DNA from: a virus
Taxonomy: Duplodnaviria; Caudoviricetes
IMG/VR virus record: IMGVR_UViG_3300035499_000517
Coordinates: 64,001-128,000 of that record
DNA: 64,000 nt
Direction: 5' to 3' (one strand)
In this document: positions 54,208 to 62,100 of the stretch, piece by piece
Layout: each line of letters begins with the position of its first letter
Position numbering within the stretch: the stretch's first letter is position 1
Notes under the pieces: model-generated
Database searches by the model: none
The model's input: only the letters and a program-made list of their open reading frames with translations
Told to the model about the DNA's origin: nothing
Translations under genes and position numbers: made by a program

Positions 54208-54687
54208 CATTATGAATTGCCTAATTTCATAACAGACTATATCTTCATCTCAAATATTCTATTACCAAATATTTGAGAGCTCTCCATTTGGGATTTTTGA
54301 TATCATTAGATATCTCACCTACATTTCGCTCTATTATTGAGCCTACTCGCTTCGTGTAGATATTTCAATCTACCTTATTTTCAAACCAGCTACTACTATT
54401 ATAGTATTTAGAGATTTCTCTCAATCTGGTTGTCTAGCTTTCCCTAGTCGTTGAACGTTACAGTATCTTGTACTGTCTTCGCAGCGGATTTTCCATTCAC
54501 ATGAATCTTGTTACTGTACCTAAGGCATTACCCTTCGCCCTTAGAATATCACTACTCTAAGTTAGTAATTCATATGTTAATTGGTACAACTGGCTACTAG
54601 TTGCATGTAACGACAAAGTTACATCTTTCCCGCGTAAAGAGAGGTTTATATAACGACTCACGCCGTTATGCGGCATATATTAAAAAG
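54208..54687 (-). ncRNA. Group I intron (480 nt, no ORF)
   Basis: P1 GCGGU/GCCGC with U-G at 5' splice site; P TTTACGCGGGAA, Q AATCCGCTGC, R TCAACGACTA, S AAGATATAGTC; terminal G; splicing restores PKAV-GTSDSGY. Confidence 0.92.
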
Positions 54688-55657
54688 ACCGCCTTGGGGT
54701 ATGCCCCCTGTACTACAGAATTGGATGCCGGGGTGAAATCTTCTTTACGAAGTCCATCGTTGAAAGAAGTTTTCATAATATCATACTTTCCAGTATTAGG
54801 ATTTATAACAGCACCACGCATCAAGAAGATATTTTTCATATGGTTGTTGATATCACCACGAGCTCCAGAATTGTAAAGGTCAAATCCCGGATCATCTTTA
54901 ATAATATCAACCATCGCATCAATAAGTTGCTTCTCGATTTTATTAGCCGTCAGAATATCTCCCTCAGCTAATTCCTTTTCGTATTTCTTGAAAAGTTCAT
55001 CACGAAGCTTCTTTACTGATACTGGGGTTTTTACAGTTTTCTCCGTAAGAGATACTGTAATGAGACCATGTAACTGGAGCCCTAACCAATCGCGATGGTC
55101 AATGTATTTACGGAAATCAGTCGTTGTAATTTTATCAGAGATAAGAAGTTGTGTTACTTCTTCCTCATAGTTGACTGCTTTCTTTTTTACTAATACTTCA
55201 TTGTTGTATGGGAAAAATCTACGGAAACCTAAACGATCAATCATGATCTTATTCCAACAAATTCTACCAACAGTCGTTTCACAAGCACGTGGATTATGAT
55301 ACTCATTTGCTTTTAATGAAACGATATCAGTGCATTCATATTTAGACTTCTTAATTGTAGATTTTCCATTCTTGTCTGTAACTTTCCTATCGGCGAATAA
55401 ATCAGAAAGGAAAGCAAAATCGAAATCTTTTGGATCCCTTTCGAGTAATTCACGTTTGAATTCTTCTGGAACATGACGGCTATCTGTGTAAGGTTCACGA
55501 GTCATATCATAAAATGTCTGATACACCTCGTATTTAATCTTTCTTACATTTTCTCCACTTGAAGAGATGAAGAAGGATTTCGATTTCATGACCTTATCAC
55601 ATTCAGCATTTGCCTCTTGTGTCCAGAGGAATTTAATTGTAACCTGATCACCATCAT
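54688..55657 (-). CDS. rpoC: RNAP beta' subunit, exon 2
   Basis: Starts within YDGDQ; TTVGR, SGARG, GL motifs of beta'. Confidence 0.9.
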
Positions 55658-55986
55658 CAATCTGGTTTCTCATACTCTCGTATGAAGTTTAGACTATATC
55701 TTCGTTAATATAATTAACACTCTCCGTTTCGGATTGTTTCACCTACATTTCGCCCTATGATTGAGCCTACTCGGTTCAGATATTGCTATCTGCCTTTCCC
55801 TAGCCGTTGAGCCCATATCTCGATGAGATACTTCGCTGCGTCGATCATCTCTATTCTTAACCTTGATTACCATATCTCCGGAGTTACCCTTTGCCCTTGG
55901 ACTGTCGCCATTCCAAGTTGGTAGTTAGACTTAACGAGACTTCCCCGCGATTAGAAGAGTTTAAGGTGACCTATAGTGATGGGTTA
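55658..55986 (-). ncRNA. Group I intron (329 nt, no ORF) in catalytic DYDGD motif
   Basis: P1 GGUGACU/GGUCACC with U-G; P10 CCAUCA/UGAUGG; P AATCGCGGGGAA, R TCAACGGCTA, S AAGATATAGTC; terminal G; splicing gives GGD-Y-DGDQ. Confidence 0.93.
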
Positions 55987-57418
55987 AGTCACCCCCGAGT
56001 CCTGCAAGATATGAATTGGAAAACTGCAGTGTATCTATGAACTGCGTTGCGTTCTTCTCTCGTGGACACAGGAAATTTTGCTTTGGAAAATGCTTGTAAA
56101 TCATTCCATTGATTTGAACGACTTCTGTTTGGAGTGTTGCAATTGGATTGATTTCAGAGACAAAGATTCCATAAGCATCAGATACAGGGTAACGTGTAAT
56201 GATCGCATGTTGATTCTTTGTGCAATCATACGCTGCCATGTAAAGAATGTCATTTACAGTCATCGGACGGTTTGAAATTGTGGAAAGTTCATGTGTTCCA
56301 CTTGGGTCCATTCGCTTTCCTGTAAATAACACATCATTGTATTCATCTTTTGCAATTGGTGCTTTAATGGGGTCAAACCTTGATTCAGGATCATGCATGT
56401 AAAGAGTCATCATATCTTCAATATACTGATCGGAGAAATAAAGCTCCGGTTTGTATAAAGCAATATAATCAATCTTCTGCTCCCCTGTTTTCTTATCGGT
56501 TTTAATGATTGGAACCTGCTCTTTGTTTGTGATAAAATTTCTCTGGAAGAAAGATTTTAACCAATTAACCATAAAAGGAGCATCCAAGTCACAAATCTGT
56601 GAAACGGGAACTCCAGTAATACCGAATCGGCTTCCAGTCTCTTCCGGACTATTATCATGATACAAAGGGCAAGAAATAACAGAACGTACACAGTTGTCTA
56701 CGTTCTTTCCCATTAAGTACTTTCGTATGATACCATTCTTTTTCTCCAGCTTCCGCTTAAAGGTATCATAAATTTCACAAAGTAATTTCTGAATCATATA
56801 ATGAGTTCCATGAAGGGTAAAGTCATACATGTCTTTATCTCTTATCACTTTGCTCAAACGAATCAGCTTTGTGTACATATTATTCAGTGGATCTGTTTCT
56901 CCACCTCCATCACTTCCCGGCATAATGTCGCGGTAAAAGACAGGAATGATGATCATCTTATCTACAAAGATTTGATTTTTTGGGGTCTTTGTCAAAAGGT
57001 CAACACGTTCATCACGCATTGCAGAAGACGCTTCATCTATCTTCAATTTCCAATTGATTTTCTCCCAATTCTCATAGATAAATTCGATGCCTGTTTGCCC
57101 GTTCTCATCATCTTGTACGAGTTCGCCTTTTGGAGTAATGGAATAATACTCAGCTCCATTTACAATGCGCTCGATGTTTCTATATAATCGCCTTAATGAT
57201 TTATAGACATGAGGATGAAAAAAGTGCCCATAGAGGGTCACATACGCATATCTATTTTTTCTGGAACGAGTATCGATACCAAATATTTCGTTGGATAATA
57301 AACCACCGGGATCTGCGACTCCTCCTCTTGCAAATACAATTGGAGAAGTGACTTCTTTTAAGTGATTCAATCCGACGAAGTCATCAAAATTAAATAATTC
57401 GACTTTAATTGTTATCAC
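55987..57418 (-). CDS. rpoC: RNAP beta' subunit, exon 1
   Basis: GLLSNEIFG, IIPVFYRD, LNNMY, GIIRKYLMGKNVD...RSVIS, ITRYP, ends LAGLGGD. Confidence 0.9.
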
Positions 57419-59116: not shown

Positions 59117-60067
59117 ATGAGTTTATTTGAGACAGAGGCAGAAAGAGGTTGGCAATTAAGTTTTCGAATTAATAGTGAATTACTTAGTAAAATGGCACCA
59201 AGTGAACAGACTGAAGAAGTTTGTATCATGGCAGTAGAAAGAGATGCAGATAATTTAAAGTATGTAGTAGATCAAACAAGAACGGTTTGCTATGAAGCAA
59301 TTAGAAGAAACCCAGATACATTGCAGTATGTCTGGGATCAAACGGATGACATCTGCTTGCTTGCAGTTATGACAGATGGGTTGGTCCTTCGTTATGTACA
59401 AAATCAAACCGAAGAAATTTGTCTTGCTGCAGTGAAACAAAATCCGGAAGCAATCATCTATGTAAAATCTCAAACGTATCGTATCAAAGAAGCAGCGATA
59501 AAAAGAGATGGCATGATGCTTCGATATATAACCCTTCCAACGGAGTACTTCTATGAGCTGGCATTGAAGCAGAATCCGAATGCAATCATTTTCATCAAAG
59601 ATCCAACGGATGAACAAGTTGATTATGTATTAGAGCAGAATCCGGGATTAATCTCTGTTGTGGAGCAGACTGAAGAAAGGAGGTCAAAAGTTTTAGAGAA
59701 TTGCCCAGCATGTATTCAATATATTCATGAACCATCAACAAACGAATGCATTCATGTCGTTTCAACGGATGGGTTATGCTTACCAAATATCACACAGAAA
59801 TATCGGACAAAATCAATATACTTTTATGCTGTAAAAGAAAATCCAGAAGCATTGGATTATGTCGTAGCAGATCATCCAGACGACGATATCATTTTTACTT
59901 GTGGAGTAGAGGCTTGTGAAATCGGAGGACTGAAATATTTATTCCGTCTTAAGAATAACAAGTTTCGAGTATTCAGGGAGATAATGAGAAATCGTAGACA
60001 TCGTCTTTTTAGAAGGGTTGAAGATAAGGTCGATGATTTCTTCAATTGGTTTTTCGGACCTCGCTAA
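59117..60067 (+). CDS. DUF4116-like helical repeat protein
   Basis: About ten 22-aa repeats of type QTEEICLAAVKQNPEAIIYVK; SD AGGAGG. Confidence 0.82.
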   Translation: MSLFETEAERGWQLSFRINSELLSKMAPSEQTEEVCIMAVERDADNLKYVVDQTRTVCYEAIRRNPDTLQYVWDQTDDICLLAVMTDGLVLRYVQNQTEEICLAAVKQNPEAIIYVKSQTYRIKEAAIKRDGMMLRYITLPTEYFYELALKQNPNAIIFIKDPTDEQVDYVLEQNPGLISVVEQTEERRSKVLENCPACIQYIHEPSTNECIHVVSTDGLCLPNITQKYRTKSIYFYAVKENPEALDYVVADHPDDDIIFTCGVEACEIGGLKYLFRLKNNKFRVFREIMRNRRHRLFRRVEDKVDDFFNWFFGPR

Positions 60068-60617
60068 GGATAAGTTGAGTCTGTCGAGGTGATGTAGTGG
60101 TATAGACTGGTAATGCTTAGTGACGTGATGTTTTGTTGCGTGGCGTAATGGTATAGTGCATTGACGTAATGGTATAGTGAAGATGGTACAGTGCTGTGAT
60201 GTATTGGCGTAGTTGATCTATGTGGCGTGCAGTGAAGTATTGGTGTTGTTTAGTGAGGAATGCTCAGATATGCAATTGGTAGTCTGATGCTCAGTTCAGT
60301 GTTGCCAGGTGAAGTGTTGGTATCGTTTAGTGATGAGGGTTGTGCTCTGGAGAGGTATAGAAAAGTAGAGTTATCTTAAGTAATGGTGTAGTTTGGTGAC
60401 GCTAGTTTTGTAACGTAAAGGTAGGGTAGAGTAGAACACTGTTCTGTTCCGTGTCGGTGAAGTGAAGTTTCGTACTGTGGAGCAACGTTTCGCATAGGTA
60501 AGGTAAAGTATCTCATATTTGTGTTCAGCATAGGTGAAGTAAAGTGGTGAAAGGAATGTGTAGTATGGGTATTGTTTAGTGACGCAAATTGTCGATATGT
60601 TTTGTTTTGGCAGAGTA
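60068..60617 (+). repeat. Non-coding 5-nt-period xG(T/C)-NN array 1 (candidate guide-RNA array)
   Basis: GT every 5 nt with variable triplets between; GTAATGGT-like junctions at 60145, 60166, 60201, 60237, 60380, 60415, 60451, 60492, 60528, 60563, 60604; no ORF >=60 aa. Confidence 0.85.
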
Positions 60618-60674
60618 TTAAGAGATATCTAATTTTGGAGCTTATTGATTTTATTGTGAAGAAAGGAGTGTGAA

Positions 60675-60896
60675 ATGGAAGTAAAGATTACATCAGAAAA
60701 AGATATTGTATTTAACACCGAGGAATTACCAAAAGTCAAAGAAGAGCTAAATGAAATAGCAAATAAACTTGACGCTTTACAAGAACGTGATTTCTTCCAA
60801 GATAATGAAAATACCTTCATGAAAATCTTGGGAGATGCAATCACGTCCATTGATGATTTACTCGATGATATCGAAACCCTGGAATCTCAGATCTAA
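60675..60896 (+). CDS. Small acidic helical protein between the arrays
   Basis: SD AAGGAG; 73 aa; DAITSIDDLLDDIETLE. Confidence 0.75.
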   Translation: MEVKITSEKDIVFNTEELPKVKEELNEIANKLDALQERDFFQDNENTFMKILGDAITSIDDLLDDIETLESQI

Positions 60897-61713
60897 GCAA
60901 AGGTTTTCCATAGTGTAGTCCGCTTTTGTACTGGTATGGTCCAGTAAAGAGGGAAATGTGACGTTCAGTACGGGCGTGGTCACGTGAGGTACTGTATGGC
61001 TTTGTGCCGTAAAGGTGAGGTAAAGCAAGTCATTGTATAGTTAAGGAGATGTAAGGCTTGGAACAGTAGCGATTGGTTGGGTATCGTAATGGTATTGTCA
61101 GGTAGTGTGGTGGCATAGCCGAGTGGCGTAGTGTTTTGTGTTGATATGGTTATCTGGCGTGCTGTATGGTTGTGTGACGATTGTTGAGTATTTTAGAAAA
61201 TCTTTAGTTGGTGTTGTAATGATAACGCCAGACATCGGATGGTAAAGTTTCGTGATGGTATATTATAGTGGGGTCCTGCGTGGTATAGGAATAGCTTGGA
61301 ATAGTAGGGTTGGGTCTAGTAGAGTAACGGTGTGACTAGGATATGAACAGTGATGTATCGTTACGGAGAGGCTAGGTTAAGAACCGTGATGTACCAGAAT
61401 AGTTTAGTCTAGTAGAGCATGGTGTAGTTATGGTGCAGTTACGCTCCGAAATGTGAGGTAACGGTACAGTGAGGAAATGCTACGCATGGGTGTAGTGCTA
61501 TTACGTAGCGTATTGGTATAGTTGCATATAGATATGTGCTGTGATGGTATGGACCAGTGTCGTTAGTAAAGTATTGCAATGGTATATTGAGGAAGGGTTA
61601 AGTATAGGTAGGGTTACGAACAGTTAAGAATAGTTGTGGTGAGGACTGGTTAACCATAGTAACGAACCGGTTTGGTTGCGTGGGTTAAAGTATACTCAGG
61701 TAATGGTAAAGTA
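60897..61713 (+). repeat. Non-coding 5-nt-period xG(T/C)-NN array 2 (candidate guide-RNA array)
   Basis: Same grammar; junctions at 60897, 60928, 60968, 61009, 61086, 61458, 61484, 61510, 61541, 61576, 61602, 61633, 61700. Confidence 0.85.
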
Positions 61714-61768
61714 TTTTAAAATTTCTAATATTGGTGAAAGTAATTAAAGACACGAAAGGAAGTATTAA

Positions 61769-62050
61769 ATGGAAGAGAAATTAAGAAACAACACAAATTC
61801 CCTCTATGAAGTAACAGAGACGATAACTGGAGTGGATTCTCTGCTGAGTTATCTGAGGAGTATCTCAGACACAGAGACACTGAATGCAAGTACAAAGATT
61901 TCTCATTATACAGCAAATGCAATTACTGATCTTGAGAATTTGAAATCTGAGCTGGAGTCTCTTAGAAGATATAAGATTGTAGAGCGAAGGGAAGCAGCAA
62001 TCGGGATTTATCCATCAGATGCTCTTGCTAAAAGTTCTAACGTAGTGTGA
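61769..62050 (+). CDS. Small helical protein after array 2
   Basis: SD AAGGA; 93 aa; NAITDLENLKSELESLR. Confidence 0.72.
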   Translation: MEEKLRNNTNSLYEVTETITGVDSLLSYLRSISDTETLNASTKISHYTANAITDLENLKSELESLRRYKIVERREAAIGIYPSDALAKSSNVV

Positions 62051-62060
62051 ACGAGAAAAT

Positions 62061-62100
62061 AAGGAGAGGATGAACACAACCATTCATCCTCTCTTTTTTT
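62061..62100. terminator. Intrinsic terminator closing the array operon (probably bidirectional)
   Basis: GAGAGGATGAA/TTCATCCTCTC + T-run. Confidence 0.8.

Follow-up and report, generated by a model that had tools for sequence, protein, structure and literature searches.

Two punctuated pentamer arrays in a viral contig are probably staggered VIPR-type vrRNA arrays

Two ORF-free tracts on the + strand of a viral contig, separated by a 73-aa ORF and lying between 60071 and 61722 of the 64-kb window (the whole stretch of DNA that was analysed), raise the question of what a five-nucleotide period that repeatedly slips by one base might encode. A first-pass annotation of this DNA had proposed that the slips occur at a recurring octamer, that they cut both tracts into units of mostly 5n+1 nt, and that they act like CRISPR repeats in yielding discrete guide RNAs, perhaps for a RAMP protein. 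Our answer, to which we assign a probability of about 0.85, is that both tracts are vrRNA arrays of VIPR type, belonging to the YNNNG / WGT-NN class and arranged in the 'staggered' layout that lacks a tail. They are a known kind of element, unusual only in that the partner gene was not found in the ~60% of the genome that is readable. The earlier interpretation is partly supported: right in kind, with its mechanism unproven.

Grammar of the two arrays

The unit in both arrays is a 5-nt NNxGY, with G at 0.82-0.86, T at 0.71-0.74 and Y at 0.85-0.87, and with the remaining positions variable (Table 1). The arrays are G/T-rich and C-poor, with 31% G and 9-10% C as against 18% C in the window. Base-identity autocorrelation, which presupposes no model, has its first maxima at lags 5 and 10 and further ones at 16, 21, 26, 31, 36 and 41 in both arrays, as expected when a 5-nt period gains one base after every few units; a GT signal of period 5 is absent elsewhere in the 115-kb record, on either strand.

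Table 1. Features of the array locus, in window coordinates.
Feature	Position	Strand	Details
DUF4116 repeat protein, 316 aa; opens the putative transcription unit	59117..60067	+	Pfam DUF4116, E 1e-18; phrog_5925
Array 1	60071..60621	+	108 units NNxGY (G 0.82, T 0.74); 14 hexamer junctions; modules mostly 35, 36 or 41 nt; C 9%; no + strand ORF
Junctions GY-AWT-G-GT-RTA (37)	60145..61707 (span)	+	Hexamer profile A.6-.7, W, T.5-.6, G.9, G.9, T.7-.8
Small acidic helical ORF, 73 aa, between the arrays	60675..60896	+	Strong AAGGAG ribosome-binding site
Array 2	60900..61722	+	161 units; grammar of array 1 with other variable bases; 23 junctions; modules mostly 26, 31 or 36 nt
Small ORF, 93 aa, 3' of array 2	61769..62050	+	Ribosome-binding site
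Intrinsic terminator closing the putative unit	62061..62096	+	14-bp stem then T run; faces convergent M48-like gene

Two independent parses, one by a cyclic HMM and one by a semi-Markov model that divides the tracts into units of 4, 5 or 6 nt and learns its emissions from them, agree with each other and confirm that the slips are real. Array 1 resolves into 91 pentamers, 14 hexamers and 3 tetramers, with successive module lengths of 51, 21, 35, 36, 36, 41, 66, 35, 36, 41, 36, 35 and 41 nt. Array 2 comprises 133 pentamers, 23 hexamers and 5 tetramers; its first eleven modules measure 40, 41, 31, 46, 21, 36, 73, 36, 31, 41 and 36 nt, and modules 12 to 22 measure 31, 36, 31, 26, 26, 31, 35, 26, 31, 31 and 36 nt. 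The junction spacings that the first-pass annotation had measured by hand agree with these semi-Markov lengths. Modules of 7 units (36 nt) are the most frequent in array 1, those of 6-7 units (31-36 nt) in array 2; modules of 35 and 40 nt each contain one 4-nt unit.

The slips are strongly directional, 37 being +1 and 8 being -1 (p = 1.5e-5), and the junctions are more evenly spaced than random placement would leave them (permutation p < 1e-4 in each array). Nor do they fall in random contexts: a G stands directly before GY in 36 of 37 junction units, where it is the extra base, and in 42 of 224 ordinary units (p = 3e-21), within a context of GY-AWT-G-GT that mostly continues as RTA. In a YNNNG reading, a module takes the form G(YNNNG)k, with the extra base being the G that separates two units. 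The octamer by which the slips had originally been recognised holds up as well, since GTAATGGT is found at 60145, 60166, 60380, 61086 and 61700 as reported, and between 60145 and 61707 the + strand has 18 occurrences of the pattern GYRWWGGY, covering 18 of the 37 junctions; across the whole 64-kb window and both strands it has 55 matches, against 29.6 +/- 5.3 in shuffles. The predominance of 5n+1 spacings, in turn, is true of the module lengths but is no finding in itself, since it follows arithmetically from slips that are single +1 events. What carries information is the direction of the slips, their context and their regularity.

The RNA of array 1 folds no better than its shuffles (z = -1.25), and this lack of excess structure suits a protein-coated single strand. 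A codon-like reading of the variable triplets gave weak stop depletion, with 5 stops against 9.9 expected here and 265 against 298 in pooled arrays (p = 0.05), and was uninformative. Tandem Repeats Finder and repeat analysis detected no CRISPR-type repeats in the arrays, and Pfam and PHROG comparison no cas genes among the neighbours. A CRISPR array was accordingly rejected, its conserved 25-40-nt direct repeats with unique spacers and its nearby cas genes not being present; what had been likened to a CRISPR repeat amounts to one additional G within a weak consensus of 8-13 nt.

Array 1 starts 4 nt past the stop codon of the DUF4116 gene, and the genes flanking the arrays are all on the + strand, which carries no ORF within either array. 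Both arrays are followed on their 3' side by a small acidic helical ORF (73 and 93 aa), each with a strong ribosome-binding site; the two are mutually dissimilar, have no family (no Pfam or PHROG family exceeded threshold for the 73-aa ORF) and have no homologue near other arrays. A blastn search of the locus against 50,697 phage records returned no match, and a search for related loci by way of the M48-like neighbour found none. Rfam reported nothing in the arrays, ribozymes included, its sole match being a group I intron elsewhere, and no tRNAs were found.

The same grammar beside a Cas7-like RAMP gene in other viruses

A 33-nt pattern taken from the window arrays, with seven GT anchors and one junction, matched at least 119 viral loci, and among the matches listed we recognised ~77 stretches, 200-2000 nt long and spread over 64 viral contigs, as genuine arrays. 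In these listed matches the pooled GT-GT lags peak at 5, 10, 15/16, 21, 26, 31 and 36 and then at 47, 52, 57 and 62, hexamer units outnumber tetramers by 1471 to 271, the pooled junction profile again reads A-A-T-G-G-T, and modules of 31 nt (276) are commonest, followed by 26 (220) and 36 (168). A query with one junction biases the set of loci somewhat toward punctuated arrays, but these arrays hold ~19 junctions each on average, so that this bias does not explain the result. The G/T-rich strand is also the sense strand of neighbouring genes in the matches listed (59 same and 9 opposite upstream, 49 and 17 downstream). The junction consensus GTaatGGTa is common to the window and to the vipr-flanking arrays of a 258-kb phage (G001), as well as to arrays of a 263-kb phage (G004).

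The grammar of the window therefore led to loci with a recurrent partner: among the matches listed, 46 of 64 loci encode, as judged by HMM searches, a protein of ~210-250 aa, mostly directly upstream of the array and on the same strand, and many of the other loci are cut by contig ends. Clustering of neighbours in the same matches separated a ~210-aa family in 30 loci from a second family, ~250 aa, in 8 more. Pfam recognises neither, and both have a C-terminal glycine loop of the GhGxxxxxGhG type. The family profile matches type VII Cas7 when compared with the PDB (E 3e-6), and an AlphaFold model of the partner (pLDDT 87) matches Cas7/Csm3 chains in Foldseek (E 5e-8), from which it follows that the partner is a lone Cas7-like RAMP. 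This protein is the Vipr of VIPR systems. The suggestion that the modules are discrete guides for a RAMP protein thus gains from the fact that arrays of the same grammar adjoin a lone Cas7-like RAMP gene, although no RAMP gene was found in the 115-kb record or its extensions.

Several other features of these loci were observed in passing. In a 243-kb phage (G006; L005:1-3750 with L030) a Vipr gene is followed by ~4 kb of nearly unbroken pentamer array, the longest found. In several phages, TnpB/Cas12f-like genes (OrfB_IS605, Cas12f1-like TNB domain) have VIPR-type arrays on both sides or one immediately upstream, for example at L007:2676-5325 in the 258-kb G001, L020:7299-9014 and L037:49-1764; they could reflect either insertion into arrays or a functional link. 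The 263-kb G004 also has a second, much weaker match to the Vipr profile (E 1e-8; G004:C1:221635-222015, L123), with no array beside it, which may be a divergent second RAMP.

VIPR was introduced in 2026 preprints as a CRISPR-related, RNA-guided DNA silencer in which Vipr is a minimal RAMP, encoded mostly by phages, and the vrRNAs are built of GGY/NN pentamers whose variable dinucleotides pair with DNA, every third base being skipped (10.64898/2026.04.26.720920). In the solved complex there is one protomer per repeat, the G-G-Y is clamped by two adjacent protomers, and a helical turn takes six subunits (10.64898/2026.04.26.720927). Repeats of the WGT/NN kind are on record (10.64898/2026.10.21.760802), and the accessible parts of the discovery preprint mention the alternatives NNNGG, YNNNG and NNNNG together with staggered arrays, draw the junctions in the legend of fig. 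S18 as boundaries of processed vrRNAs, and give small-RNA sequencing as confirmation of the other array types only (10.64898/2026.04.26.720920).

The window arrays have a pentamer with a conserved G(G)Y core and variable bases, matching the YNNNG / WGT-NN variants of these preprints. Between consecutive modules there is one additional G and no conserved tail, in agreement with the fig. S18 legend, where neighbouring vrRNAs of a staggered array abut or share one nucleotide and have neither tails nor ribozymes between them. As far as the accessible parts of fig. S17-S18 and Methods describe them (10.64898/2026.04.26.720920), staggered arrays share with ours a 5-nt repeat with a constant G-Y and the rest variable, a long, tail-less form on the sense strand of phage genomes, and modules that end where the next begins. 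Unlike at those loci, no vipr or recognisable vap was found within 39 kb of the window arrays on one side or ~100 kb on the other, and a DUF4116 gene and both small ORFs belong to the same apparent operon as the arrays; the rule of an extra G, AWT-G-GT-RTA and 5-8 units per module is likewise not spelled out in the accessible text of the VIPR preprints. The window is also tied to VIPR by identity of grammar, in that its pattern retrieved arrays adjoining Vipr homologues.

Other relatives are more distant. The type II VIPR of Escherichia phage SUSP1 (Vipr, vap1 and vrRNAs) is similarly phage-borne and written in a pentamer code, presumably with one RAMP protomer per repeat in both cases; its vrRNAs, however, are separate ~100-nt transcripts of 9-16 strict GGY/NN repeats with a conserved ~40-nt pseudoknot tail, whereas the window arrays are tail-less, have modules of 4-9 units and are degenerate at the first G everywhere but at the start of a module. 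Class 1 CRISPR crRNA on a Cas7 backbone offers the same general picture of a RAMP filament with a fixed period, bases flipped out and an array cut into unit guides. Its period, however, is 6 nt without a sequence requirement and its repeats of 25-40 nt alternate with contiguous spacers, while in the window the RNA sequence itself encodes the period and one added base marks the boundary.

Whether the phage encodes its own Vipr

The record is viral and encodes a multisubunit RNA polymerase with split subunits, which share ~33% identity with their counterparts in AR9, PBS1 and Staphylococcus jumbo phages. One of the subunit genes is interrupted by a group I intron (RF00028, 59.5 bits) at 55669-56023 in the window, which divides an RNA polymerase beta/beta'-like gene (54666-57418, - strand) into ORFs 55961-57418 and 54666-55673. 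IMG/VR classes the 115-kb record as linear, and CheckV puts it at 47% complete; relatives of its RNA polymerase beta' are on contigs of 250-290 kb, and together these figures imply a true genome of probably ~245 kb.

No vipr was detected in the 115-kb record by HMMs of two Vipr clusters applied to six-frame ORFs, profiles that could miss other Vipr types; hhalign against all 97 ORFs of at least 90 aa reached a best probability of 4%, and searches for the glycine-loop motif and of the whole record likewise returned none. Other assemblies of the same phage extend the record by ~30 kb past one end and ~7 kb past the other, the latter inside a giant virion gene, and contain neither vipr nor arrays, bringing the search to ~151 kb of the estimated 245 kb. 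The record itself starts inside this virion gene (G000:C1:1-3034, at least 3372 aa, with a Phage_lysozyme2 match; also L131 and L133), all other assemblies of this phage break in or near it, and such breaks probably explain why the genome was recovered in halves. About 15 kb past the record's end lies a tyrosine-recombinase (Phage_integrase) gene (L142:3195-4145); in other respects the phage looks like a lytic jumbo phage of the AR9 kind.

It follows that the arrays are either solo or far from any vipr gene. Failure to find the gene does not show its absence: the near-complete jumbo phages G001 and G004, which encode the same RNA polymerase beta' family as the window's phage, have arrays without an adjacent vipr that lie 22 kb and 10 kb, respectively, from one. 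In the closest long relative, a 128-kb contig whose RNA polymerase beta' is 70% identical, the 10 kb around the beta' gene contain no array. Most likely, the vipr gene lies in the unassembled part of a ~245-kb jumbo-phage genome.

It is possible, though in our estimation somewhat unlikely, that the arrays are VIPR-type but solo, their ~35 modules loading onto the Vipr of a co-infecting phage, prophage or satellite and either redirecting it (a sword for hire) or titrating it as a decoy. The stretch already searched without result speaks in favour of this, as does the fact that arrays normally adjoin vipr (46 of 64 loci among the matches listed) or lie within 10-22 kb of it, and there is a precedent in the solo vrRNAs of VIPR-null, SUSP1-like phages and of satellites (10.64898/2026.10.15.759431). 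The record is nonetheless a fragment, Vipr was encoded by all 5 of the near-complete jumbo phages with such arrays that were examined, and the documented precedent is of another scale: although vrRNA-type repeats without a nearby vipr are common to both, solo loci of VIPR-null phages and F5 satellites consist of 1-2 tailed type II vrRNAs left by a defined vipr-vap1 deletion (10.64898/2026.10.15.759431), as compared with ~35 modules in 1.4 kb here, in an incomplete genome where the absence of vipr is unproven. The decoy form has the further difficulty that the variable bases are diverse rather than repetitive, a diversity that a pure sponge would not need.

What the junctions may do

Three observations support the view that the junction is a signal and not noise: it has its own consensus, a full GGY, which is what the solved Vipr pocket reads (10.64898/2026.04.26.720927), occurs only in the unit after a junction, and this consensus is common to unrelated phages. 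We hypothesize that the DUF4116 gene, the two small ORFs and both arrays would be transcribed together from the + strand as far as the terminator, and that a Vipr protomer, being a Cas7-like RAMP, would bind each pentamer by analogy with the solved type II complex, clamping the constant G-Y pair and exposing the variable bases for gapped pairing with double-stranded DNA, possibly that of a competing mobile element. By shifting the register by one, the extra G would divide the transcript into modules G(YNNNG)k that are complete in themselves, where k is mostly 5-8 and each module opens with a full GGT and closes with a biased AWT triplet. Such modules would be guide units, either as cleavage products, perhaps cut at G|G, or as separate segments of a filament.

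Under the published two-of-five code, a module with 5-8 variable units carries 10-16 informative bases, which is little for a specific guide and counts against simple, independent guides. In the one search for foreign targets, a 9-unit module used as an exact NNx pattern against viral contigs had 3 matches, about the number estimated by chance, with third bases at chance level and no other module mapping to the same contigs, and self-targets showed no excess (best-match fraction 0.875, against 0.875 in shuffles).

An alternative that we regard as unlikely is that the +1 junction bounds neither a processed RNA nor a guide and instead serves as a structural phase mark in one long Vipr filament, for instance by nucleating it at a high-affinity GGT or by resetting the register roughly once in each helical turn; several modules would then act together. 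The small information content of a single module, together with a commonest pooled module that equals one filament turn (6 units, 31 nt, among the matches listed, for six subunits per turn; 10.64898/2026.04.26.720927), keeps this alternative alive, and confinement of the full GGY to the junction unit agrees with it too. Modules that vary from 4 to 9 units within one array, however, are ill-suited to a fixed helical period, and the fig. S18 legend treats junctions as the ends of processed vrRNAs (10.64898/2026.04.26.720920). A more elaborate and decidedly doubtful extension would make the module, and not the array, the working unit of this YNNNG class, one that is too short for two-of-five pairing and so read by a 3-of-5 code or in cooperation with other modules, with GGT nucleating or phasing segments of about one turn and the arrays running solo on a rival's Vipr.

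Readings outside VIPR fare worse. That the arrays bind some other protein, such as the adjacent DUF4116 repeat protein or a TRAP-like ring that holds triplets 5-6 nt apart, is very improbable. TRAP binding sites do have a similar period, the DUF4116 gene directly precedes array 1, and its product is itself a tandem-repeat protein. Yet no homologue of DUF4116 or of any other window neighbour was found near the arrays of the 119 other loci listed, and the grammar of the window arrays, junction consensus included, is that of vipr-adjacent arrays; the DUF4116 protein is probably a neighbour of the arrays and not their partner. Still less credible is a feature of the DNA itself, in which GT every 5.15-5.2 bp, or half a helical turn, would phase a DNA-binding or DNA-wrapping protein: the mean period of 31/6 to 36/7 nt does double to 10.3 bp, near the B-DNA repeat, but the strand asymmetry in G and C is strong, and the arrays are consistently co-oriented with transcription and associated with an RNA-binding RAMP protein. 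Strand bias, co-orientation and the RAMP link led us to drop both the DNA half-turn and the TRAP-like readings.

A TIGR array giving 36-nt tigRNAs has a negligible chance of being correct and was rejected on its defining features, despite the 36-nt modules of array 1 and the occurrence of TIGR systems as phage-borne tandem guide arrays with weak overall conservation and 36-nt units (PMC12045711), since TIGR units have a dual conserved repeat of 8-12 nt at edge and loop with box C/D-like UG and CCA boxes, 9-nt spacers and a neighbouring Nop-domain effector, Tas (PMC12045711), whereas the window has no conserved repeats, little C, a period of 5 and no Nop domain among its neighbours.

With vipr either distant or lacking, the locus is one more example of a system already on record, and no new kind of system. 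VIPR was described only in 2026, and the available parts of the discovery preprint leave staggered arrays as a type that RNA sequencing did not confirm. This locus and the ~77 pooled arrays among the matches listed make the grammar of such arrays explicit and open to testing: modules G(YNNNG)k with 5-8 units, most often 6, meet at AWT-G-GT junctions. They also raise the question of how guides with only 10-16 informative bases achieve specificity, and they indicate that in jumbo phages with AR9-type RNA polymerases such arrays lie at a distance from vipr, and possibly occur without it.
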